A stretch of 64,000 nucleotides of DNA from an uncultured Planctomycetota bacterium (GTDB taxonomy: Bacteria > Planctomycetota > Planctomycetia > Gemmatales > Gemmataceae), in the NCBI GenBank assembly GCA_963849325.1, contig CAWKHF010000007.1, positions 96,001 to 160,000 of the forward strand. Direction: 5' to 3'. Positions 17,538 to 30,672 of this stretch are shown here, in pieces. The position numbers and the translations under genes are program-made. Under the pieces are notes generated by a model that searched no databases, was not told the origin of the DNA, and was given only the letters and a program-made list of their open reading frames with translations. Numbering within the stretch: position 1 is the first letter of the stretch; each line of letters begins with the position of its first letter.

Positions 17538-19515
17538 GTGGCCCCCGCGCGCTGGCGTCCGGTGATTGACTATCTGCGCATGATCGCGCGACGTCCGCAG
17601 CCGGAGGAGCGCGGCGACGCCTGGCTGCTGGCTCGCTTCGTCGCCGACCGCGACGAGTCGGCGTTCGCCGCCCTGGTGCATCGGCACGGCCCGATGGTAT
17701 TCGCCACCTGTCGCTGTATCCTGGGCGACGTTCACGATGCCGAGGACTGCTTGCAAGCCGTCTTCCTCGTTCTGGCGCAAGGCCGCCTCGCTCCGCAATC
17801 CCGATCGTCTGGCCAACTGGTTGTACGGCGTCGCCCGCCGCACTGCTGCCAAGGCGCGCGTGCGCAGCGTCCGGCGGCGAAGGCACGAAATGCCTCTCGT
17901 GGATGTTCCCGGCCAAGGGAGCGACGATCTCATCTGGCGTGAGTTGCGGCCGGTCCTCGACGAGGAAATCGCGCGTCTACCCGCTCGCTATCGGCCGGCA
18001 GTGGTCCTGTGCTATCTCGAAGGAGCGAGCAACGCCGAGGCGGCGCGGCGGCTCGGCTGGCCGCGCGGCACGGTAGCGACGCGCCTGGCCTGGGCGCGGC
18101 AGCGGCTGCGCTCCCGACTGGAGTGGCGCGGCATCACCCTGCCGGCCGGCGCCCTGACGGCGCTTCTGGCACAGGAGACGGCCGAGGCCGCTATCTCGGG
18201 GAGACTGGCGAAAACGACCGTCGAGGCGTCTCTGCGCTTCGCCGTGGGACAGGGAATGACCGCCGCCACGACGTCGGCGGTGATGCTGGCGAAAGGAGTG
18301 CTCACGAGCATGACCATGACCAAGGTGCAGTTCGCCGTCCTGATGGTGCTGACCGCCAGCGTGGTCGGCGTCGGTACGGGCTGGCTGGTGCGCTCTCTGT
18401 CGAGCGGCGAGCGACCGCAGGCTGTCGCCCCGCCCTCCGTCGCACGAGCCGAACCCGACCGCAACGAGATCCTGAAAGAGGAGATCGCGGTCCTGCAACG
18501 TGAGCTGCGAGAGCTGAAGAAGTCGCCGGCCGCGAAACCGACGCCGCCGGAAGCGAAAGAGACAGCGGCCGCCGACTCGCTGCCTCTCCTGTATCAAGGA
18601 AAGCCTGCCAGCGCCTGGTTGGTGACGCTCCGCGACCGCGATCCGGATTACCGCGTCAAGGGCATTAAGGCGCTCGATTCTCTCGCGCAGGTGGACCCGT
18701 CGTTGATCCCGGCAATTATGGGATCTTTGAAAGATAACGACCCAGAAGTCCGCACGGCGGCGGTCAATGCCCTCGGCGACATCGGTTCGCCGGCCGGTGA
18801 AGCCGTGCCCCTCATCCTGCGGAGCGGCTGTTCCATCCAGAACATCCTGAATGCCCTGGACGAGATCGATCCCAAGGGTCAGCGGGCCATGCCAGCCGCG
18901 TTGGCTGTCTTGAAGGAGACGGAAGCGCGACCACGACAGACAGCCGCTTTCGTCCTGCTGCACTTCGACAAGTCCAAGATGCGTCTTGGCATGACCGGCT
19001 TTGTCGATGCCTTCCAAGCGGAGGACGAGAATTTCTTCTGGTATGATCGAACGACGAAGGCAAGCGAGAGTGTCACGGTGCATCTCATCGCCGCGTGGGC
19101 GCTGGAGCAGATTGGGTCCCAGGCGCGCGAAGCCGTGCCGGCCTTGGTGCGAGCGCTCCATTCTCCCCTGCATAACTCGGATGCCGTCAGAGCGTGTAGT
19201 TCCGCTTTGACAAGCGTGGACCCGGAAGGCAAGGAAGCGATTCCGTTGTTGATAAAAGAATTGGCTTCCATGAAACAACCTCTCGATGATTCCGATAGAG
19301 GAGAGCGGACTTGTGTGATCCGCGCTCTGGCCTTGTATGGTCCAAAGGCCAAGGCGGCGATTCCGACTCTGCGAGAAATCGTCAAGAAAATCGAATCCTC
19401 GAAACACCCCAATTTCGCAGAAGGACTGCATTTTGTCGCTATCGACGCCCTTAACAAGATCGATCCCAAGAAGCCGCCAACTAGCAAATCGAACAAGGCG
19501 GCGAAAGAGAATTAG
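17538..19515 (+). CDS. ECF sigma-70 factor with TM helix and C-terminal HEAT repeats, frameshifted near 17780
   Basis: 'LLARFVADRDESAFAALVHRHGPMV...DAEDCLQAVFLVL', 'LANWLYGVARR', region 4 'EAARRLGWPRGTVATRL'; HEAT-like 'DPEVRTAAVNALGDIG..A.EAVP'. Confidence 0.88.
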
Positions 19516-19650: not shown

Positions 19651-19777
19651 ACCCTGCTCGCCAGGCATACCCCATCTCTTTTCCCTTTCCTCTCCCCGTA
19701 CCGACCGATATGATCGCTGGCAGATACCCCCCCTGCCTTGGGGCCTTCCCTCGCCTCCTTCCTTGCGAGAATGCACC

Positions 19778-21813
19778 ATGAACGTCTCGTCTCTTTCTTC
19801 CTTGTGCTTGCGTATACTGCTGGGTGCCGCCGTCATGCTGGCGTGGGCCGGCCACGGACAGGCGCAGAAACCGGCCCCGCTGCCGGTCAACCCGCAGGCG
19901 CCGGTGCTGAAGCCGGCCGTGCCGCTGGGCATGCAGCGCGGCACCACACTGGAGCTAAACCTTACCGGGACCAATCTCGCCGAGCCGACCGGCCTGTGGA
20001 CCAGCTTTCCCGCCAAGGTCGCCATCCCCACCGAGGGCAACAACGGCAAGGACAATACGAAACTGCTCGTCCGTCTCGACGTACCCAAGGACGCCCCGGT
20101 CGGCTTCCATGCGATCCGGCTGGCGACGCGGCGCGGCATGTCGAACCTGCGCCTGTTCTGCATCGACGATCTGCCGCAGGTGCTGGAGACGAGCACGAAC
20201 CACGCGCCGGCCACGGCCCAGGCCGTGCCGGTGCCGTGCGTCGTCGCGGCCAAGGCCGACGCCGAGACGACCGATTACTTCAAGTTCCGCGTCACCGCCG
20301 GTCAGCGCGTCAGCTTCGAGGTCCTGGGCCGGCGGCTGGGCAGCCTGTTCGATCCGCAGTTGCAACTCCTCGACGCCGCCACCGGACGCGAATTGCCGGG
20401 CGCCTACAGCAACGATGCGCCGGGCTTGCAGACCGACGCCCGCATGACTTACACCTTCAAGAATGCCGGCGAGTATCTCGTGGCCGTGCGCGACGTCAGC
20501 TATCGCGGCGGCGACGACTTCCATTACCGCCTGCGCATCGGCGATTTTCCCTGCGCCACCACAACGCTGCCGCTGGCCGCCAAGCGCGGCAGCAAGGTGT
20601 CCGTGCGCTTCGCTGGTCCCACCGTGGACGGCGTTGCTCCCGTCGAGGTGACGGTGCCGGCCGACCCGGCGGTCGAATCACTGGTACTGGCGCCGCGCGG
20701 GGCCAACGGCTTGCACGGCTGGCCGGTCAGCCTGGCGGTCTCCGACCTGGACGAGACGCTGGAGCAGGAGCCGAACAACGAACCGGCGAAGGCCAACCGT
20801 ATTGCCGGTGCCCGGTGCCGTCACCGCTCGCTTCGAGCAGAAGGGCGACATCGATTCCTTCGTCTTCGCACTGAAGAAGGGCGTGCGTTACACCATCGAG
20901 GTACAGACGCACGAACTCGGTTCGCCGACCGAGGTGTACATGACCCTGCGCGATGCCAAGGGGGCACAGCTGCAAGCGAGCAATCCGACGACGGCGCCGC
21001 GGCTGGACTTCACGCCGCCGGCCGACGGCGATTACACGCTGCAAGTGGAACACCTGCACCTGTGGGGCGGGCCGGACGAGGTCTACCGCGTCCGCGTCGC
21101 GCCCTCCGAACCGGGCTTCGATCTGACCGTGGCGCTGGACCGCTACGATGTCGGCCAGGGCGGCAAGCTGTCGATCCCCGTCCTGGCGCCGCGGCGCGAC
21201 TTCGGCGGTCCCATCGAAATCAGCGTCCTGGGACCGAAGGGCATCAGCGGTCATCTTGCCGTCGCCGCCGGCAAGGCGCCGCCGGCCAATCAGCCGATCG
21301 GCACGTTGACCGTCAACGTGGCCGACGACGTGCCGCTGGGTGCGTATGCCTTCCGCATCCAGGGCAAGGCGACAATCGACGGCAAGGTGGTGACGAGGTT
21401 GGCCAGCGCTCGCACGGCCGTCAGCCAGGGGTTGGCCAACCTGCCGCTGCCGCCGAGGGAGATGCTGACCACGATAGGCCTGGCCGTCACGCCGAAACCG
21501 CCGTTCACCCTGGCCGCGAAGCTCGACGCCCCGTCGTACATGCCCGGCAAGCCGGCGACGCTGACGGTCACGGCCACGCGCTCGGCCGGCTTCACGGCCG
21601 AGATCGTCCTGAGCGCCGCCGGCCTTCCGCCCGGCGTCACGGCGGCGTCTGAAAAACATCCCGGCCAATCAGAACGAGGTCAAGGTGCAGCTGACTCTGA
21701 CGCCGCAGACCAAGGTCGGCCAAACCTCCCTCGTCCTCACGGGCAAAGCCAATCACCAGGGCCGCGATGTGACGGCTACTGCGCCGCCGGTCGCCCTCGT
21801 GGTCAAGAAATAA
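19778..21813 (+). CDS. secreted PPC (pre-peptidase C-terminal) domain protein, frameshifted
   Basis: signal peptide; 'PLGMQRGTTLEL.LTG', 'DYFKF...GQRVSFEV..RRLGS..DP', 'EQEPNNEP..AN', typical planctomycete PPC architecture over three frames. Confidence 0.8.
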
Positions 21814-21827
21814 AAACGCCATCCATC

Positions 21828-22253
21828 CTACGGCCCTTGTCTGTATTTCCGGGCGATTGCTAATATCACATGGATGATGATGAGGAGGAGAGTGCCGCCC
21901 GCGAACGACCACAGACCGGCCTGTATCGTCCTACGGGTTCCGGTGAGAAAGCCAGCGATAAAACATGCGGCCCCGATGGCCTGTAGTAGGCAGGCAATGT
22001 AGAATCCGAATTCAGAGGCAAGCGGCTTCTGTTTATGTCTCCATTTGATTACTAAGATCATGGAGCTGAGAATCATGAGAAGAACGGCGCCGGTGAATAA
22101 GGGAACGCACAACCATACCCCAACAATAACGAGCTGTCTAAGGCCAGCGAAAAAGCCAATGATCTCACACAGCAATCCTAGAAGTCCCAGTATTGCTGCA
22201 ACCCGGACGCAAAAATCGATAGAAAGCAGCTTGCCTGACATTCGGACAATCAC
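21828..22253 (-). CDS. small 4-TM membrane protein, candidate orphan immunity protein
   Basis: 141 aa with four hydrophobic stretches, low GC, distal end of the toxin locus. Confidence 0.55.
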   Translation of the reverse strand: MIVRMSGKLLSIDFCVRVAAILGLLGLLCEIIGFFAGLRQLVIVGVWLCVPLFTGAVLLMILSSMILVIKWRHKQKPLASEFGFYIACLLQAIGAACFIAGFLTGTRRTIQAGLWSFAGGTLLLIIIHVILAIARKYRQGP

Positions 22254-22283
22254 TGCCTATGGCTGTGACGCAGCCCAATATCT

Positions 22284-22442
22284 CTATGTTCGCTCATCCT
22301 GGTGTAGTTCACCATCACTGGTATCAGGAGAGGGTGCATCATATAGCTCGTATCGCACGCCTTCTACTTCACCGGAGGCGATTGGCTTCGCACTGGTTGG
22401 TTGATACTCTGCGAGGATCTGCGAAACAGTGCGGTTATTCAT
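22284..22442 (-). CDS. small acidic ORF (MNNRTVSQILAEYQP..., 52 aa), candidate immunity gene or fragment
   Basis: own translation; ATG overlaps the TGA of the upstream 22439..22627 ORF (ATGA coupling). Confidence 0.35.
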   Translation of the reverse strand: MNNRTVSQILAEYQPTSAKPIASGEVEGVRYELYDAPSPDTSDGELHQDERT

Positions 22443-22748
22443 TCTCTCGTAGCGCCTTCAATTCCATACCATCCAACATAGTTCCGTAGGATGGTACGAA
22501 GTTGCTTACTCAATACTGGCGGCAATGCCTGAATGGCTTTCGTCAAAGAGATGGACACTTCCTGAAGGCTTGAGCCTGAAATCAATCTTCCCCCATGATC
22601 TGTCACGGCATTTCTCCGCAATAACACGTTATGGCTTCACGAGAAGCACTCCATTCCTCCATGCCCATTGGCTTCCAGCGCTATCAATATACCATATATC
22701 CATTTGGAATTGCTGAGATGCCCACTGCATAAGACTTTGGCAATCTCT

Positions 22749-24280
22749 CTGTACTTTCCGTGATTTTCTCATAGTTCGCCATAAGCGACAACTTCGGGAG
22801 ATAATTCTTGGTGAGGTCGAGCAACATGGCAGCGACGGGCGGGTGGACGATAACCGGCTCCCCGGACACGATGAGGGGTGACTACCGTCCCTCGTCTCGC
22901 CAAGGAGCCGGCCATGCCATTGTCGCAACTGCCCACCTCGTTGTCCGCCTGGCTGTCCGACATCACCGCTGCCCTCGATCGCCGCTCCGCCCCGCGACTG
23001 CTCCTGCTGCTGGTCGGGGCCCTGTTCGCCAAAGGACGCCGTACCGTCATCTCCTGGTTCCACGCCGCCGGCATCACCACCGACTTCCGGCCCGCCTACA
23101 ACGCCTTGGGGGCTGCTGGCCGCCGCGTCGATGCCCTGAGCTACCGCCTGCTTGGCATCGCCCTCAAGCCGCTGATGCGTCGCATCCCCGGCGACCGTCT
23201 GCTGTTCGCCATCGACGATACGCCGACGGCGCGCTACGGACCCTGCGTGCAGGGCGCCGGCATCCACCACAACCCCAGCCCCGGCCCCGCCGGCGAAAAG
23301 TTCGTCTACGGTCACGTCTGGGTCAGCCTCGCCTGGTTGGCCCATCACCCGGCCTGGCACACGCTGGCCCTGCCGTTGCGTGCCCTGTTGTACGTCCGCG
23401 CCAAGGACGTGCCGGCGTTGGCCGAGAACTACCCCTGGCCGTTCCGCACCAAGCTGGAACTGGCTGCGGAGTTGGTCCGCTGGTTGACGGTCTGGGTGGG
23501 CGGTCTGGGCCGGACCTTGTGGCTGGCGGTCGATGGGGCCTACGCCAAGCGACCGTTTTTGCAGCCGGTGATGGCGTTGGGAGTGGTGGTCGTCAGCCGG
23601 CTGCGCAAGGACGCTCACCTGATGACCCTGCCACCGACCCGACGTCGGCACGGACAGCGTGGACCGTTGCCGACCTACGGCAAGGAGCGGATCGACCTGG
23701 CCAAGCGTGCCGGACAGCAGCGGGGCTGGCGGCGGCTGGAGTGCGTGCAGTACGGAGAGCGGGTGGTCAAGCAGATCAAGACGTTCCAGGCGACCTGGCG
23801 GCCGGCGGGCGGCTGCATCTGCGTGGTGCTCGTGCGTGAGGACGACGGCTGGCTGGCCTACTTCTGCACGGACCCGGAGGCGACGGCGACGCAGGTGCTG
23901 GAAGCGATGGCCGACCGAGGTGCGATCGAGCAGATGTTCAAGGATGTCAAGGAGGTCTGGGGTGCCGGCCAGCAGCAGGTGCGGAACGTGTACGCCAGCA
24001 TCGGAGCCTGGGCGGTGAACCTGGTGATGTACAGCGTGGTGGAGGCGTGGGCTTGGACGCATGAGGAGGAGGAGTTGGTGGACCGCCGTCGGTCGCCGTG
24101 GGACACCAAGGATCGTCGGCCGTCGCACGCGGACAAGCGGAAGGCGTTGCAACGGCTGATCCTCCGAGAAGAAATCCGCGCGGCTGTCGAGGGTCGGCCC
24201 GAGTCGGAAGGGTTTCGGAACGTGGCTATCCGCCTGCTCGATTTAGCCGCCTGACTGTAAGACTCTCACGGAAAGTACAG
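22749..24280 (+). mobile_element. insertion sequence, IS701-like, 1532 bp
   Basis: 15-bp terminal inverted repeats CTGTACTTTCCGTGA (22749-22763) / TCACGGAAAGTACAG (24266-24280); direct repeat AATCTCT at 22742-22748 and 24281-24287. Confidence 0.92.
22914..24254 (+). CDS. DDE transposase (IS701-like)
   Basis: AAGGAG RBS; 'FAIDDT', 'AVDGAYA', 'RGAIEQMFKDVKE' DDE triad; intact 446 aa. Confidence 0.9.
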   Translation: MPLSQLPTSLSAWLSDITAALDRRSAPRLLLLLVGALFAKGRRTVISWFHAAGITTDFRPAYNALGAAGRRVDALSYRLLGIALKPLMRRIPGDRLLFAIDDTPTARYGPCVQGAGIHHNPSPGPAGEKFVYGHVWVSLAWLAHHPAWHTLALPLRALLYVRAKDVPALAENYPWPFRTKLELAAELVRWLTVWVGGLGRTLWLAVDGAYAKRPFLQPVMALGVVVVSRLRKDAHLMTLPPTRRRHGQRGPLPTYGKERIDLAKRAGQQRGWRRLECVQYGERVVKQIKTFQATWRPAGGCICVVLVREDDGWLAYFCTDPEATATQVLEAMADRGAIEQMFKDVKEVWGAGQQQVRNVYASIGAWAVNLVMYSVVEAWAWTHEEEELVDRRRSPWDTKDRRPSHADKRKALQRLILREEIRAAVEGRPESEGFRNVAIRLLDLAA

Positions 24281-24524
24281 AATCTCTGCAAGCTGGGAGG
24301 ATTCCATCGAAAGTCAGCCTCATTCCCGGCCCCAACTTCCCTGCTTCGGCCAACTCGGCGATAACTTTTCCTTCAGTATGAGTGTACCAGGCTTGTTCAG
24401 GAAATGTCAACTTGGTTCCCTTGGGGAAGGTAACTTCGGCACCACTTATCGCAGTTCCGCCTGCGATTCTCCCACCTCTTGGACCTGTAAATTCCCAATC
24501 AGCCACATGTGGAGTATTCGACGC

Positions 24525-24737
24525 TCGTCCGAACCAGCCTCCCAGCCCGGCGAAGGCCATCGTCAGTACTGCGGGCGTGAAGTCGCCAATGGTCTTCGCC
24601 GTTCCCTCACTCGCTCCCAGGCCACTTGCAGCCGAATAACCCAGATACGCAATCACCGAGGAGTTGGACTGTCCCGAACCCCAGTCGGCCACTCCCGCGA
24701 TGATCTGATCTACCCCCACCGACATCAAGCCCACACC
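24525..24737 (-). repeat. direct repeat of the pre-toxin segment (copy 2; copy 1 at 26265-26477)
   Basis: GVGLMSVGVDQIIAGVA...FAGLG.WFGR, 60/71 aa identical by manual alignment. Confidence 0.92.
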
Positions 24738-24751
24738 CGACACTACCGCAT

Positions 24752-25198
24752 TTATGTGGGCGAACTCGCAAAATACATGTCCTCTTCAAACGTGAACGAG
24801 AAGCACCAGCCACCGTCCTTGGCAATCACATATAGCGATTGAGGTTCTGTCAACAATCTTGAGAATACATCAAGAAGTACGCCAAAAGTCATCTCCAAAG
24901 CGACTGAAGTTGTATTGTCTCCAACTACCACACATCTGTCGCTCGAATTAAGCCCAGCGGCCAATTCAAATTGTTCTAGAAATTCTCGGATTTCGCTTTC
25001 CTTATCGGCTATCGGAACGCGAGGGAACCTTGCTGGGCGGAATTGTGTACTCGGAAGTTGTTCCCAGCAGATTCCACTCGCACGCACAGGGAAACGCTGA
25101 CTGAGGAGATTGAACCACGGTTTATCGCTTTCATGGACAGTGATCAGTCCCGCAGCGACTTCACTTGCGAGGCATTCCAGCCAATCTTGCTGGTTCAT
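24752..25198 (-). CDS. orphan immunity-like protein
   Basis: 148 aa, AGGAG RBS, low GC; C-terminal 'PQSLYVIAKDGGWCFSFTFEEDMYF' resembles CDI/Rhs immunity proteins (from recall, not searched). Confidence 0.65.
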   Translation of the reverse strand: MNQQDWLECLASEVAAGLITVHESDKPWFNLLSQRFPVRASGICWEQLPSTQFRPARFPRVPIADKESEIREFLEQFELAAGLNSSDRCVVVGDNTTSVALEMTFGVLLDVFSRLLTEPQSLYVIAKDGGWCFSFTFEEDMYFASSPT

Positions 25199-25254
25199 GA
25201 TGCAACTCTCCTAGGGCTATTGGCCACCAAACAGTTGTCGAAGGACTGCGAGGT

Positions 25255-25505
25255 AGAAGGCGAAAAATAGACAAAAAATGCATAAGATACTTTTAGAGTC
25301 TGTCCCAAAAGCCCCTCTCCCCCGAATCGGGGGAGAGGGGCTTTTGGGACAGACTCTTAATGCATTAGAGGCACTAACAAAAAGGCGAACGGCCGGCGTG
25401 AGCCGGCTGGTTTTGGCCCCCACCAGCCGGCTCACGCCGGCCGTTCGCCCAAAAAGTTAGTGGCTCTTAAAACCATCTTATGCGTTTTCTGCTTTTTACA
25501 CCTTT
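25255..25505. mobile_element. nested MITE/REP-like palindromic element
   Basis: perfect 30-bp-arm hairpin 25295-25357 and 28-bp-arm hairpin 25384-25449, enclosed by imperfect AT-rich outer inverted repeats (gcataagat / atcttatgc cores). Confidence 0.7.
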
Positions 25506-25521
25506 TCTCCTTTCATTGGGA

Positions 25522-25977
25522 CTATTCTTTTTGCATTCGCTTAGTTAGCTCGCCAAGGATTTCTGCGACAAAGTTTGAGTTGGTCGCTAGGCATGTCCTT
25601 TCCCCGGTGTCCGGCTTAGTGAAGAACACGCTTCTTATAGGCACTCTCCGCACAGAATCAATGAGGTCTTGCGTGACATTCGCATCCGGAAGTCTGCCCA
25701 ATAGGTGAAACGCCGTACAGCAGACTGACGCTTCTTCGTGCGCGAGAAAGTGCGGCAAATGTGGACCGAAAATCTGCGGGGAATGAACCATCCCTAGCTC
25801 AAGAGCATATACGAGGTGGTACTTATCGTAATTAGGCAAGTCCGATAACATGCGCCCAAGTGATTCTTCGGAAACCCTTGTCGCTGGATCGTTGAGCAAG
25901 GGCTCCATGTAAGCAGCTAGGGCCGAGTTGGCAAGGGCGACAAACGTATCGTACTCGAAAACAGGTGTTGTGGCCAT
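25522..25977 (-). CDS. putative cognate immunity protein (MATTPVFEYD..., 151 aa)
   Basis: ATG overlaps the toxin's TAA stop (TAATG at 25975-25979); low GC; helical, weak HEAT-like segment. Confidence 0.7.
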   Translation of the reverse strand: MATTPVFEYDTFVALANSALAAYMEPLLNDPATRVSEESLGRMLSDLPNYDKYHLVYALELGMVHSPQIFGPHLPHFLAHEEASVCCTAFHLLGRLPDANVTQDLIDSVRRVPIRSVFFTKPDTGERTCLATNSNFVAEILGELTKRMQKE

Positions 25978-28900
25978 TAGAATCCCCATCGGATAACTTT
26001 TCCGGTCGAGTCGATTACCACAGCTCCATACGCTTGAACGAAGCCACGACCTGATGCCTGCCAGGCCAGATCGTGAAAACGGGCAACGAACACTCGCCCA
26101 TTTACAACGAGAGCAGGCCAAGGTCCTGCGCCAAGACCTGGAGCAACTATGGCCTGACTTCCCACAATTGCACCGCGAGCACCTAGCGAAGGTGGCGGCG
26201 ACGTTGCGGTCCCCGGTCCCCTCGCCAGTCCTGGGACGTTCGGTGCCGCCGGGGATTGAGGCCCTCTTCCAAACCAATTCCCCAGCCCCGCGAACGCCAT
26301 CGCCAGCACTGCGGGCGTGAAGTCGCCGATGGTCTGCGCCGTACTCTCACTCGCGCCCAGCCCGCTCGCAGCCGAATAGCCCAGGTATTGGTATAACGAA
26401 GGGTTGGGCTGCGATGAACCCCAGTTGGCCACCCCCGCAATTATCTGATCCACCCCCACCGACATCAAGCCCACGCCCAGCGGCACCACCACGCCGCCAC
26501 CGTTGCCCAGCGTCATCACCGCCCCGCCAATCACGTCGGCGATGCCCACGCCGATCTGCAACACGCTGCCGCCATTTGCCAGCAACCATTGCACCCCCGC
26601 ATCACGCAGGAAGTCCGCTTTCAATTGGTCCCACGTCGTCGTACCCGACGCGCCCGGCCACGACAAGTCCTCTTCCGTGTCGATCGATGGCGACGGCTTG
26701 GCGTCACCCCACGGCGATACCGCACCCGACTTCCGATCCGTCGTCGCACCCCAACTCGCCGACCACAAGTACGTCTTGCGACCACCATCCCCCGACGAAG
26801 AATCACCCTTCGCCCAAGAACGATACACACCGATCTGCCAGCTATTGTTCGTGTTGGTGCTCGCGGGCGACACGAACACCCGACTCGTCCAGTTCTCGCT
26901 GCCGGCCCGCTCATCGATGTCGCGCAGGCTCAACTGACGCTGACCGCCCACTGATGTGCCGGCGATGTTCTTGTGATACGACTGGAAACCGTCGGCATAA
27001 TTACGAATGGTAAAGCCGTCGGCCGTGTCCAGGTTGAACACCTTCTGCCGCGACCATTCCGTCTTCTGCTGGTCGCCCTTGCGGTTGAAACTGAAAGTGT
27101 AATTGTCCGGCGTGCCCTTCTCGACCGTGGTTTCGCTGGTGGAGTTGCTCATGTCCAACTTGTGCCGCCACGACGACTCGACTGCCGGATTGCCGTTGTC
27201 GTACTCGTCGCCTTCGTCGTCCTCCGCATCAGCGGCCGGATGGTACGACTGGTCCTTCTCGTGGAACTCGCTGCTGTTGCTGTCGCTGTGATCGATAGAG
27301 AACTGCCGGCCCGTCTCGCTCCAGCCCGAGTCAGTGCTCTTCTGGTTGACGGTCAGTGTATCGTCTACCGAGGACGATGCCTGGGCTTTGTATCTCCAGT
27401 CGCCGGTGCGGCCCTGACCGTCATCGAGCTTGCCGTTGGCGGCCATCGAGCTATTGCCGCTGCTCTGCTGCGTGAAGCCGGTGGTGCGCGTCGCTTCCGC
27501 ATTACCGTCGCTCAACGTGATGGTCACCGTGTCGGTGCTGCTGACCTTGCCGCTGCCGCCGGCGTTGATCTGGGCATGCAAGACATCGTTATCGCGGTCG
27601 ATCTTGCGATTGATTCCATAGTCGGCGGCGGCGCTGTTGTCGGTCCCCATCGTGATGGTGCCGCTGGCTTGATCGCCGCACAACGTCAAGTCCAGGCCCA
27701 GCGAGTCGCCGCTGTGGCTGTGGTTGTGATTGGTATCGTTGACTTGGCCGGTGCCGTCGGACAGCGGCACGCTGCCCTTGACGGTGTTGACTACGTCGGT
27801 ATCGCTGGCGTCGCTGCCACTGGCGGTCAGCGTGCCGTTGGCCGTGCCCGCGTCGTCGTAGGTCAGGTCGGCTGTGGCGTTGCCGCTGGAACTGCTGCTG
27901 GCCGTGGACAGCGACGTTTGCGTGGGCTGGTTGGTCCCCGCTTGCTTCGACCACACAAAGCCGCCGCCGGACTGGTTGCTCTGCGCCTGGTCGTAGCTGC
28001 TGCCGTCGGTCAGCTGGCCGTCGCTATTGACATTGCCCTTGGCCTTGGACGTGCCCGAGGTACTCGCCGTGTTGCTGGCGAAGACGATGGCGCTCCCTTG
28101 CAGCGAGCCATCGGCAGCGGTGAAGTCGGCCTTGTTGAAGCCCGAGGCGGCGCTCTTGCTCTGGTAGCTGCCGCTGTCGTCGATGCTGTTGACCTTGGCC
28201 ACCTGGTCGGACGCGCCGGAGACGACGCCGTCGCTGTGACTACTGCTGTTGGCCTGGGATGAGTACGTGCCCACCGTCTGACCGGCGGGGGCACCACTGC
28301 TGGAGTCGGCACCGACGGCGATGGTGGAGCCGCCGCTGTCGCTCTGCGACATCTTGGCGTCACTGCTGAGCTGCGAACGGTAGGTCTGCTGGTCCTGGGT
28401 GGCCGAACCGTCGGCGTAGGTCTGGTCCAACGTCTGATCGTCGCTGTAGCTGCCGCTGCTGTCGCTCTGGTAGCGGGAGGTGCCGTCGCTGGCGGCATCG
28501 CCGCCGCGGTGGTAGGCATCGGTGACGGCGTAATGGTTGGTCTGGTTGCCGCTATCGTGGTCCTCGCGGCCCTGCGTGCCCGACTGCGACAAGCCGCCGG
28601 CATCGGTTAGGTTGGTGTCCTGGTTACCGTCGTCTTCATCGAAGCTCTGGTTGTCGATGTCCCAACGGAACTGATCGCGGTCGCCACTGGTGGGATCGCT
28701 GGCGCTAGTGCTGTTCTGGAAGTAATAGCGTGAGGCGACCTGATCGTGGTAATCGTTGTGGGCGTTGATGGCCTGCTGGGTGAGGATGCCGAAGGAGCCG
28801 TAGGTGTTCGTGATCGTGCTGTTACTGTTGAGGAAACCACTGGCGGAAGAGAGTTGTAGGTAATGTGTGCCGTCGGCCGGCGCGGCGGACGGGTCGGGAG

Positions 28901-30479
28901 CGGGGCTGTTATCGTCGGTGGGGAAGTTGGCGGCGTTGTCGCTTTGGATCAACTCGCTGTTGTAAGTGCTTCCTTGCCGGGAGGTCGAGACCGCCGTGCC
29001 CGAGCCGTCGGACTCGCTTTCCTCGGACGTGCCATCATCCGGCGTGCTATCAGCATTCGAGGAGGCCGCGTCGGTCCAGGTGGACGACTGGTTGGACCAG
29101 TCGGTGCGACTGGAGTGGTTGACGAACTGATAGCGGCCGCCGTTGTCGGCGGTGTAGCTGCCGGAGGCCTCGAAGGTGATCGACCCGTTCCAGCTGGTGT
29201 GGTCCCACGTCATGTAGCCGAAGCCATAAGTCGGCACGTAGCCGCCGAGCGGCATGCCTTGCATGGCGATGCTGGGATCGATGGGCGTGCTGAAGGGCGT
29301 CACCTCGTTCTCCACATCGAAGTTCCAGCCATAATCGGTGTGCAAGGAGGCGGTGGCGGTGGTAGTTCCGGTCAGCACCCAGGAGGCGCCGGCCGCGGCC
29401 TGATCGCCGGTAGCCGGCGCGATGGCGGCGTCGAGGGTGACGTCGAGGGAGAAGGAACCATCCTTGCTGCCGCCGCTGTAAGTGTAGTGCTGCACATAAT
29501 GGCTGGAGTCGATCTGGATGGCAGGCGTGGCCGTGGCACTGGTGGTGCTATCGTCCGAGGTGGCGGCACTGGTATCGTCGGCCGTGGTATCGGTGGCGTC
29601 GGTGGTGTCTGCCGTCAGGTCCGCCGGCAGGTCGGGGGCGGTGGTGATGTCGGGTGGCGTGTAGTCGGAGTTATCCACGGCGGGGCCGGCGGAGGTATCC
29701 GGTGCATCGCTGGTGTCGGTGCTGCTGCTATCGGGCCCCCAATCATCGTCCGTGCTGGAGTCATCCGGCGGGGTGGTGTCATCGCTGCTGACATCCGTCG
29801 GCAGGATCAGCCCCGGTTGCGGCGACGTGGCGTCGGCGGTGGAGTCGGTCGGGGCGGGATCATTGTTGGGGCTGGCCGATAGGGAGCTGGTCCACCACGA
29901 ACCGTTGGCAAGCAGCGTCTGAGGATCGAGAGGAGCGGCACTGTCATCGGCGGGGGTGGTGCTGGTGTCGCCCGCGGATGGTCCTATGGCTTGCGCCGCG
30001 AGTGCGCCGCTGGCCGGGTCGATCGGGGACGCCAGGTTGGGATCATCGCCCGCGTTATCGGCAGAGGAATCGGACGGCTGTGCGAGTGTATCGGCAGCGG
30101 TCGCGGTCGCGGTCGCTGTCGCCGGCATGGCAGCCATGTACTGGGCGTAAGCGGTGTAGGACGAGAAGGGCAGGTCCGGGGTGGAGGATGCGGCGGCGTC
30201 GGCATTCGGAGTCCCATCCGTGCCGGTGTTATCGGCAGCGGGGGAAGTCGCGGTCGCGGCCGTTGGCGTGGCGGCGTAGAGGTCCGCATAAGTCGTGGTG
30301 CCGGCTGAGGAAGTCGGGTCCGGGGGCAGCCATGCGGCCGACAGCAAGACGCGCTCCTCCAAGCTTTCCAGGCGGAGGTCCACGTACCGAGGTTTGCTCG
30401 ACCGTGGTCTCCGGCTGCGGAGGTGGGAGGTGGAAATATGAGGCAGAAGATGGCTTTTCAGCCAGGAGAAAAAGGTCAT
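25977..30479 (-). CDS. large exported polymorphic toxin-like protein with LEPR-XLL (planctomycete extracellular) N-terminal motif
   Basis: 'MTFFSWLK...RSRRPRSSKPR..LRLESLEERVLLS'; D/T/S/P/A linker; S/T/D/N/G-rich stalk; hydrophobic Gly-rich pre-toxin segment duplicated downstream; ~95-aa variable tip. Confidence 0.85.
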   Translation of the reverse strand: MTFFSWLKSHLLPHISTSHLRSRRPRSSKPRYVDLRLESLEERVLLSAAWLPPDPTSSAGTTTYADLYAATPTAATATSPAADNTGTDGTPNADAAASSTPDLPFSSYTAYAQYMAAMPATATATATAADTLAQPSDSSADNAGDDPNLASPIDPASGALAAQAIGPSAGDTSTTPADDSAAPLDPQTLLANGSWWTSSLSASPNNDPAPTDSTADATSPQPGLILPTDVSSDDTTPPDDSSTDDDWGPDSSSTDTSDAPDTSAGPAVDNSDYTPPDITTAPDLPADLTADTTDATDTTADDTSAATSDDSTTSATATPAIQIDSSHYVQHYTYSGGSKDGSFSLDVTLDAAIAPATGDQAAAGASWVLTGTTTATASLHTDYGWNFDVENEVTPFSTPIDPSIAMQGMPLGGYVPTYGFGYMTWDHTSWNGSITFEASGSYTADNGGRYQFVNHSSRTDWSNQSSTWTDAASSNADSTPDDGTSEESESDGSGTAVSTSRQGSTYNSELIQSDNAANFPTDDNSPAPDPSAAPADGTHYLQLSSASGFLNSNSTITNTYGSFGILTQQAINAHNDYHDQVASRYYFQNSTSASDPTSGDRDQFRWDIDNQSFDEDDGNQDTNLTDAGGLSQSGTQGREDHDSGNQTNHYAVTDAYHRGGDAASDGTSRYQSDSSGSYSDDQTLDQTYADGSATQDQQTYRSQLSSDAKMSQSDSGGSTIAVGADSSSGAPAGQTVGTYSSQANSSSHSDGVVSGASDQVAKVNSIDDSGSYQSKSAASGFNKADFTAADGSLQGSAIVFASNTASTSGTSKAKGNVNSDGQLTDGSSYDQAQSNQSGGGFVWSKQAGTNQPTQTSLSTASSSSSGNATADLTYDDAGTANGTLTASGSDASDTDVVNTVKGSVPLSDGTGQVNDTNHNHSHSGDSLGLDLTLCGDQASGTITMGTDNSAAADYGINRKIDRDNDVLHAQINAGGSGKVSSTDTVTITLSDGNAEATRTTGFTQQSSGNSSMAANGKLDDGQGRTGDWRYKAQASSSVDDTLTVNQKSTDSGWSETGRQFSIDHSDSNSSEFHEKDQSYHPAADAEDDEGDEYDNGNPAVESSWRHKLDMSNSTSETTVEKGTPDNYTFSFNRKGDQQKTEWSRQKVFNLDTADGFTIRNYADGFQSYHKNIAGTSVGGQRQLSLRDIDERAGSENWTSRVFVSPASTNTNNSWQIGVYRSWAKGDSSSGDGGRKTYLWSASWGATTDRKSGAVSPWGDAKPSPSIDTEEDLSWPGASGTTTWDQLKADFLRDAGVQWLLANGGSVLQIGVGIADVIGGAVMTLGNGGGVVVPLGVGLMSVGVDQIIAGVANWGSSQPNPSLYQYLGYSAASGLGASESTAQTIGDFTPAVLAMAFAGLGNWFGRGPQSPAAPNVPGLARGPGTATSPPPSLGARGAIVGSQAIVAPGLGAGPWPALVVNGRVFVARFHDLAWQASGRGFVQAYGAVVIDSTGKVIRWGF

Positions 30480-30672
30480 GGGCGTCCCCGCTCGTCCCAA
30501 GGAAACCTAAAGAAACCGTAATGAAAGTCTTTGGGGAAGAGTCATGTCGAAACCGCATTTGTCAAGGAAGTGAATACGTTTTTAATCTTTAGCCGTTGGT
30601 ATGGTAATTGCGGTGAAACATCGAAAGGGCGCCGGACGTTCGCGCCTTTGTAGGTTCCCTAAGGAGGAATTT

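Follow-up and report, generated by a model that had tools for sequence, protein, structure and literature searches.

An IS701-family element interrupts a predicted BaDTF3-type deaminase toxin tip in an orphan cassette of a planctomycete genome

In a 64,000-nucleotide stretch of the genome of an uncultured Planctomycetota bacterium (the window), a segment encoding the C-terminal tip of a polymorphic toxin is cut in two by an insertion sequence (IS), and reading across the insertion restores a single frame that carries the motifs of a zinc-dependent deaminase. The locus is very probably a displaced orphan toxin-immunity cassette in a high-GC planctomycete, with a once-whole cytosine deaminase tip of the BaDTF3 family that was killed by the IS. 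The features that carry this reading are listed here by window position.

24282..24524, minus strand: deaminase tip, N-terminal 81 amino acids, with the putative active-site His of PHVADWE, the TFP hairpin, HTE (predicted zinc His and catalytic Glu) and the first zinc Cys in PAC-RD
22629..22742, minus strand: deaminase tip, C-terminal 37 amino acids plus stop, carrying the predicted second zinc Cys, helix 3 and the C-terminal beta-hairpin that bears the conserved Tyr (position of DddB Tyr2039)
24281..24287, no strand: target-site duplication, copy AATCTCT
22742..22748, no strand: target-site duplication, copy AATCTCT
22749..24280, plus strand: IS701-family insertion sequence, 1532 base pairs (bp), with terminal inverted repeats, GC 0.666

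A toxin tip split between two cysteine codons

The upstream part of the tip lies in a 166-amino-acid minus-strand open reading frame (ORF, 24243-24743) that contains HTEGK. Its native part stops at ...ILPACRD (codon 24282-24284), past which the ORF reads 12 codons of foreign sequence, the end of the inserted element, before it reaches a stop. The two copies of the 7-bp target-site duplication are perfect, and the element together with one repeat amounts to 1539 = 3 x 513 bases, so that the frame is preserved. Beyond the element and the repeat, the frame resumes at TGC (Cys) and runs through 36 more codons to a TAA at 22629-22631. The break falls between the two Cys codons of the C-x-x-C motif, with the first cysteine in P-A-C-R-D and the second encoded by the first codon past the IS. 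A first-pass annotation, made by a model from the letters alone, had described a deaminase tip hidden by an IS inside this motif; on re-reading the sequence, its coordinates, repeat and translation were all correct, the frame was restored, and the element and duplication were found between the two Cys codons, as it had said.

The two pieces form one continuous domain in intact relatives. In alignment to these, the segments 24282-24524 and 22632-22742 (minus strand) adjoin without gap or overlap: the upstream and downstream pieces match residues 113-192 and 193-229 of the homologue P0003, of which residue 229 is the C terminus, and residues 162-239 and 240-276 of the homologue P0004. The pieces likewise meet in the family alignment and, when the genome itself was searched with a profile, at model positions 68-149 and 148-183. 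A hidden Markov model (HMM) of 33 intact relatives scored the upstream piece at 106.5 bits, the downstream piece alone at 44.1 bits and the read-through at 164.0 bits; in control sequences, in which the upstream piece was followed by a shuffled downstream piece (n = 20), the same HMM gave a mean of 107.5 and a maximum of 111.9 bits. The join goes beyond a chance open frame.

We next describe the family to which the tip was assigned. An exhaustive HMMER protein search with the 81-amino-acid upstream piece as the query returned 48 proteins at E ≤ 1e-3, of which six (P0026, P0030, P0036, P0039, P0041 and P0042) were set aside as unrelated repeat proteins that were matched in 0-8 short stretches and lack the motifs. 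Among the remaining 42 homologues, HxE is kept in 41 and the Cys pair in all 42, three of these pairs having a longer spacer, and the conservation of the four residues that the first-pass annotation had taken as catalytic is thereby borne out. HxE followed by CxxC occurs in 38 of the 42, with 28-38 residues past the second Cys in 36 of the 38 and the other two cut short; three homologues carry HTERK with a C-x6-C spacer, and one is a truncated record with HTK. The best homologues are 77% and 73% identical to the query, and each has 36 more residues past the break point. With a word-indexed protein search, the same 81-amino-acid piece found nothing at E ≤ 0.01 among proteins of near lengths and only P0003, P0004 and P0006 among longer ones.

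Pfam family PF14427 (Pput2613-deam, cut-off 25) was matched above the cut-off by 14 of 18 intact homologues (25.1-42.7 bits), with two below it and two without a match, and by four of five locus-encoded toxins. A PT-HINT pre-toxin domain is present in 9 of the 18 intact homologues scanned. Searched against Protein Data Bank (PDB) sequences, the family profile reached 9k3e_B at E 6.9e-12 and the BaDTF3 chains 9pw0, 9pw1 and 9pw2 at 3e-10 to 7e-9, and through this profile HTEGK aligns with His1993-Thr1994-Glu1995 of DddB. A tree puts the window tip together with P0003 and P0004 (support 99/94), with P0005 joining this group next (95/92). These comparisons support the assignment of the sequence as a putative zinc deaminase toxin tip of the Pput_2613-like or BaDTF3 family, in agreement with the clade that the first-pass annotation had named from recall. 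Pput_2613-like deaminases have been renamed BaDTF3, and a Taylorella member is described as toxic and as causing C:G-to-T:A changes in E. coli (de Moraes et al., bioRxiv). Iyer et al. (2011) characterize the clade by HTE in helix 2, PCxxCK in helix 3, inserts before strand 1 and helix 2 and a toxin context, and already place a planctomycete, Planctomyces maris, within it (PMC3239186). The window tip shares the HTE, the Cys pair, both inserts and the toxin context. It departs from the clade motif in having Ala between Pro and Cys (P-A-C) and Gln in place of Lys after the second Cys, and the scores of its intact relatives lie near the PF14427 cut-off (25-43 bits). The named genome records in the subclade all appear to be planctomycete.

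A structural model was built for P0003, the closest intact homologue (43-row alignment), rather than for the broken product of the window. Its mean pLDDT is 80.1, with values of 84-98 over residues 121-229, and its secondary-structure elements follow the order of a deaminase with a C-terminal hairpin. Foldseek placed DddB first (E 4.3e-7, target TM score 0.78), followed by DYW, DddA, cytidine deaminases and APOBECs, and VIA-align matched the model to DddB with a Z score of 14.8 and a 2.1 Å root-mean-square deviation over 102 of 108 residues, the next entry reaching a Z score of 9.9. The deaminase fold that the first-pass annotation had expected is predicted for this homologue, and the nearest structure is that of DddB.

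On this model, the whole tip would be a zinc-dependent cytosine deaminase in which the HTE His and both Cys of PAC-x-x-C bind zinc, the HTE Glu acts as the proton shuttle, and the His near the start of the domain and the hairpin Tyr line the cytosine pocket. The insertion would strip away one zinc ligand, helix 3 and the Tyr-bearing C-terminal hairpin. Because the second zinc Cys, helix 3 and the hairpin with the essential Tyr are cut off, the product of the interrupted gene is expected to be catalytically dead.

The orphan cassette and its partner gene

The split tip lies downstream of a full-length toxin gene, with which it shares a short stretch, and is followed by a small gene of the immunity type.

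25977..30500, minus strand: full-length polymorphic toxin gene, 1507 amino acids as listed, the last ~95 amino acids of which (25980-26264) form a different tip
24524..24738, minus strand: remnant of a toxin constant (pre-toxin) region, ending ...GLGGWFGR, at the 5' end of the orphan cassette
22442..22606, minus strand: putative immunity gene, N-terminal half, likely GTG start at 22606, 22 nucleotides past the toxin stop; the frame ends with TGA at 22439-22441
22284..22457, minus strand: putative immunity gene, C-terminal half in another frame, including the stop; the frame changes near 22450

The first ~72 residues of the 166-amino-acid ORF belong to the constant region and not to the deaminase. 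This region is shared with the main toxin gene: positions 24524-24738 match 26264-26478 at 177 of 214 nucleotides (83%), and at the protein level, 79 residues of the orphan copy show 77% identity to the stretch that ends the main toxin's constant region. The similarity stops at both ends, the 3' limit being ...WFGR in both copies and the 5' limit being 24738, next to an unrelated 148-amino-acid ORF that ends at 24752. The composition of the cassette is foreign, with a GC content of about 50-53% over 21.8-26.3 kb compared with 64.6% for the window. The tip appears to be a displaced orphan cassette without a delivery part of its own, and since it stands behind a full-length toxin gene, it was probably not deployed even before the IS arrived; as it is an orphan, the loss of the toxin probably cost nothing. 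It would represent a silent spare that has to recombine into the main gene before it can be used. Comparable orphan toxin-immunity cassettes are the orphan cdiA-CT/cdiI and Rhs tips. The window locus resembles known orphan cassettes in that a tip and an immunity gene lie downstream of the full gene together with a short constant-region stretch that possibly serves recombination, and differs from them in that the tip has also been destroyed by an IS and the immunity gene is in two frames. Orphan tips displaced from the full gene are described for polymorphic toxin loci by Zhang et al. (2012, PMC3482391).

The gene that follows the tip belongs to a family of small partner proteins. An ORF of 89-143 amino acids begins within a few bases of the toxin stop at six of six genome loci with a related toxin, all of them in Planctomycetota metagenome-assembled genomes (MAGs). 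An HMM search found a partner family of ~100 amino acids, in a single frame and right after the toxin, at 16 of 16 related loci (6 from genomes and 10 from metagenomes, forming 12 groups at 95% identity, with the six genome loci having also fed the HMM). In the window, this HMM matches at positions 10-56 in one frame (22442-22606) and at positions 53-96 in another (22287-22457), the latter with 39.6 bits. Residues 1-52 of P0054, an intact homologue, are identical to the first half at 41 of 52 positions, and residues 53-99 to the second half at 36 of 47, an alignment that fits one single-base frameshift near 22450 with no residues lost. The first-pass annotation had seen no clear full-length immunity gene after the toxin. 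That statement does not hold, as a putative one follows at 22287-22606, split by a frameshift, and its family stands after the toxin at all 16 related loci.

The ~100-amino-acid protein encoded 22 nucleotides downstream would block the tip in the producing cell. The partner family had no match in Pfam, NCBIfam or PADLOC beyond noise (for Pfam, six locus proteins at E ≤ 1 and nine members at E ≤ 10), nothing better than E 0.06 among PDB sequences and no match there to an immunity protein. A profile search with the partner alignment returned seven proteins, none of them named beyond 'hypothetical protein', and a look-up of the partner P0052 in the ESM Atlas gave a best feature score of 0.76, which is below the lead level. 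Imm10, the family paired with Pput_2613 deaminases (Zhang et al. 2012, PMC3482391), was considered as a candidate, as it too is a small protein encoded right after the toxin; it was rejected, given that the partners had no Pfam match to Imm10 and that the range listed for Imm10 contains no planctomycetes. The partner probably represents a new immunity family. A net negative charge, which ten of the 12 members have, would suit an inhibitor that mimics DNA.

How the frameshift in this gene is to be read depends on the quality of the assembly. The genome comprises 14 contigs with a marker completeness of only 84.7%; rpoB takes up at least three frames, as does rpoC (contig C1:334967-343005), and a gyrA-like gene on contig 14 (C14:48379-50982) is in about ten pieces. 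In the window itself, a gene for an ECF-type sigma factor fused to HEAT repeats (17538-19515, plus strand) is split within region 2, so that the first half of Sigma70_r2 and Sigma70_r4 are in different frames, and a gene for a PPC-domain protein (19763-21863, plus strand) is in two overlapping frames, both of which are probably assembly indels. Because rpoB, rpoC and the gyrA-like gene are also fragmented, the frameshift in the immunity gene may be an assembly error. With essential genes broken in the assembly, single-base frameshifts are weak evidence of decay, and frameshifts anywhere in this genome assembly should not be read as pseudogenes without reads.

It is possible, at slightly less than an even chance in our estimation, that the immunity gene is really intact and that only the toxin half of the cassette is dead, in which case the cell would have a working orphan immunity against neighbours that bear the deaminase. 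The frame-broken rpoB, rpoC, gyrA-like, sigma-factor and PPC-domain genes fit this alternative, as do the two halves of the immunity gene, in which no residue of P0054 is missing and identity to it is still 77-79%. Errors are not everywhere, however, as the adjacent 4.5-kb main toxin ORF and 1.4-kb transposase ORF are uninterrupted, and a cassette with a dead toxin has little need of immunity unless competitors carry the toxin. The tip was matched in none of 40 relatives, and of 400 sampled genomes of the phylum, two matched through the deaminase part (E ≤ 1e-10) and four more through the HINT part of the query only. A search with PF14427 over the genome that contains the window found no other copy above the cut-off.

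Comparison with DddB and the likely substrate

DddB is the BaDTF3 tip of a YD-repeat toxin of Taylorella equigenitalis (PDB 9k3e and 9pw0-9pw2); it is reported to be a cytosine deaminase selective for double-stranded DNA (dsDNA), with complexes with DNA and with the immunity protein solved and base editors derived from it (PMC13346905). By analogy with DddB, the whole tip would convert C to U in a neighbouring cell's DNA, having been delivered as the C terminus of a large toxin; both the substrate, double-stranded DNA, and the delivery route are presumed from this analogy. The two tips have in common their place at the C terminus of a polymorphic toxin, the zinc site of HTE and P-C-x-x-C, a pocket His ahead of strand 1, a C-terminal hairpin with a Tyr, an aromatic-Pro hairpin in the insert that precedes helix 2 and an immunity gene directly downstream. 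We mapped DddB positions through the profile alignment and counted them in 33 tips, which had been chosen for HxE..CxxC, so that those four residues are invariant by construction. The positions at which the DddB residue, or its aromatic character, is largely kept are the following.

His1952 of DddB (pocket): H in 30 of 33 tips; H in the window (PHVADWE)
Tyr2039 of DddB: Y in 33 of 33 tips; Y in the window (IWYID)
Thr1994 of DddB: T in 32 of 33 tips; T in the window
Phe1985 of DddB: F or W in 32 of 33 tips; F in the window
Pro1986 of DddB: P in 28 of 33 tips; P in the window

His1952 and Tyr2039 are reported as perfectly conserved among BaDTF3 orthologues, among which RRPP, according to the same source, is not conserved (PMC13346905).

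A number of observations weigh against reading the window tip as a dsDNA cytosine deaminase of this family. Taken alone, the N-terminal fragment from the window scores only 15.0 bits on PF14427 (E 0.022, cut-off 25) and matches no deaminase among PDB sequences, and P0003 alone reaches only E 0.016 against DddB; these low single-sequence scores mark a divergent branch of the family. The modelled relative, P0003, is 77% identical to the window tip in the N-terminal part and 51% in the C-terminal part. At three positions the residue of DddB is lost throughout the tips counted: at Gly1984, 31 of 33 tips have S or T and none has G, the window having T; at Tyr2016, 24 have L and none has Y, the window having L; and at Arg2021 no tip has R, the window having D. 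Asp occupies the last of these positions in the window and in its two closest relatives, and in DddB the substitutions R2021D and R2021E are each reported to abolish activity (PMC13346905). The tips are also not basic, with a median isoelectric point (pI) of 5.85. Finally, the main toxin gene had no secretion genes beside it, and its upstream neighbours are metabolic (FAA hydrolase, MFS).

The differences from DddB extend beyond these residues. Identity is only about 20-25%; the tips have S/T-F-P where DddB has G-F-P, Leu for Tyr2016 and no RRPP; and where DddB needs a non-acidic residue at 2021 (Arg), the window has Asp. The pre-toxin context is another one, with no YD/Rhs repeats detected in the main toxin of the window, and the window copy is cut by an IS and orphan, with a partner gene that has no sequence match to any solved chain. 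The tip appears to belong to the broad PF14427 family and yet not to be a DddB orthologue, because G-F-P within the helix-hairpin-helix insert, Tyr2016 and a non-acidic residue at 2021 are not kept. Two other groups of bacterial toxin deaminases, DddA (BaDTF1) and SsdA (BaDTF2), are likewise deaminase-fold toxin tips with a cognate immunity protein; they fall in other clades and match the P0003 model less well, with Z scores of about 8 for DddA and 7.3-7.7 for SsdA. Toxins of the DddA and SsdA types are described as causing C-to-U damage and mutagenesis in target cells (de Moraes et al., bioRxiv).

One alternative to a DddB-like activity, which we consider unlikely although worth weighing, is that the same fold and chemistry serve another substrate or another mode of engagement, so that the subclade acts on single-stranded DNA (ssDNA) or RNA, or flips the base in some other way. 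The residues with which DddB engages dsDNA are replaced clade-wide (the Gly of GFP, Tyr2016, Arg2021 and the RRPP stretch), Asp stands in the window where R2021D kills DddB, and the median pI of the tips points in the same direction. In the NEB screen, many bacterial deaminases are described as active on both ssDNA and dsDNA, and four of five DNA-active deaminase families held at least one member with RNA activity above that of APOBEC3A, the four not being named. Set against this, the hairpin retains its aromatic-Pro pair (F or W in 32 and P in 28 of the 33 tips), the pocket His and Tyr are retained too, DddB leads the other structures by a wide margin (Z 14.8 as against 9.9), and RRPP is reported as unconserved even among BaDTF3 orthologues (PMC13346905). 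An extension of this idea is similarly doubtful: that a planctomycete BaDTF3 subclade with its dsDNA-grip residues replaced engages its substrate differently, in another sequence context or as ssDNA or RNA, and that the partner is a new type of inhibitor.

These comparisons also bear on the use of the tip. The first-pass annotation had presented it as a reconstructable deaminase with promise for base editing. The deaminase stands, whereas the promise as a tool was overstated, as the family is already characterized and about 40 intact relatives from the subclade are in public protein collections, so that the broken copy is not needed as a source. The structures, mechanism and base editors of BaDTF3/DddB are known already, and the window copy is an ordinary broken member; what is mildly new are the residue differences between the subclade and DddB and the unannotated partner family. 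The subclade departs from DddB at several DNA-contact positions, and screens for other context or strand preferences could reasonably include its intact members.

The inserted element and the surrounding locus

The 1532-bp element (22749-24280) starts with CTGTACTTTCCGTGA and ends with the inverted copy of those 15 bases. Its terminal inverted repeats are imperfect, the 28-nucleotide arms being 82% complementary and the outermost 15 nucleotides being identical in inverted orientation. It carries a single transposase gene.

22878..24254, plus strand: transposase gene, 458 amino acids, uninterrupted; matches NF049999, Pfam DDE_5 and DDE_Tnp_1

The transposase scores 289.8 bits against the NCBIfam equivalog NF049999 of the IS701 family (cut-off 170) and also matches Pfam DDE_5 and DDE_Tnp_1. 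A DDE transposase, terminal inverted repeats and a short target duplication are all present, as in the IS701 family. The duplication is 7 bp here compared with six exact bases at both of the diverged copies elsewhere in the genome. These two further full-length copies are 83% and 78% identical to the element and are accompanied by fragments; no identical second copy was found in the assembly. In the 83% copy (contig C2:191686-193221), the transposase is spread over three frames, and in the 78% copy it is in one frame. Of 25 relatives searched, 4 carry related transposases: 2 of 10 from the same genus, 2 of 5 from further genera of the family and none of 10 from the sister family. The GC content of the IS, 66.6%, is host-like and contrasts with that of the cassette stretch. 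Since the transposase lineage occurs in relatives, the element appears to be an IS native to the bacterial family of the host, and a foreign cassette seems to have been struck by a resident IS.

The duplication and the matching terminal repeats mark a genuine transposition, unlike the frameshift in the immunity gene. There is only a slim chance that the insertion is polymorphic or artefactual, and that part of the population, or the true genome, has an uninterrupted tip. The assembly is a consensus of uncertain quality, and the element, being intact and flanked by a perfect duplication, looks recent. Yet real transposition, and not misassembly, is what leaves a perfect 7-bp duplication precisely at the ends of an element whose terminal repeats match, and no empty site was found: no sequencing run holding 24281-25300 was listed, and the protein collections searched contained no allele closer than 76-77% identity. 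It is highly improbable that the sequence is instead a fragment of a housekeeping nucleotide or tRNA deaminase, for although H-x-E and P-C-x-x-C occur in all cytidine-deaminase-like enzymes and cytidine deaminase and APOBEC chains are among the fold-search matches, the tip is fused to the constant region of a 1507-amino-acid polymorphic toxin, half of the relatives scanned lie behind PT-HINT, the small partner gene is always next, the best matches are toxin deaminases and the cassette has a foreign GC content.

The reading of an IS-killed orphan deaminase cassette makes the locus a clear case of a spare toxin cassette that decays through a resident IS. The value of the find is modest overall; the correct reconstruction from raw sequence shows that an IS can hide a toxin gene from ORF-based annotation.

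Several neighbouring ORFs complete the locus. For the main toxin ORF, neither Pfam (E ≤ 1) nor NCBIfam (E ≤ 0.1) returned a family, and PDB sequences gave no match to its 95-amino-acid C-terminal tip. Two ORFs that lie between the main toxin gene and the orphan, at 25522-26277 (minus strand; about 155 amino acids from an internal start) and at 24752-25198 (minus strand; 148 amino acids), probably encode the immunity protein of the main tip and another orphan immunity protein; no family and no protein of the related loci matched either of them. Compared with the related loci, the neighbouring ORFs of 148, 251 and 141 amino acids and the main toxin tip gave no real match. At 25217-25460, in the gap between the two unassigned ORFs, ORFs on both strands yield the same short peptide (..SRLTPAVR..), which indicates an inverted repeat. 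Just past the immunity gene, a strongly hydrophobic, low-GC ORF of 141 amino acids (21828-22253, minus strand), assigned to no family, closes the foreign island. A consensus scan of 21500-26600 gave five promoter-like sites against 2.1 expected and five terminator-like sites against 4.3 expected, and was not used as evidence. At a related locus in a Planctomycetaceae MAG (L016:2077-5184), two HINT toxins with similar N termini and different tips stand in tandem, the first with a deaminase tip and partner and the second with a tip that is unassigned.

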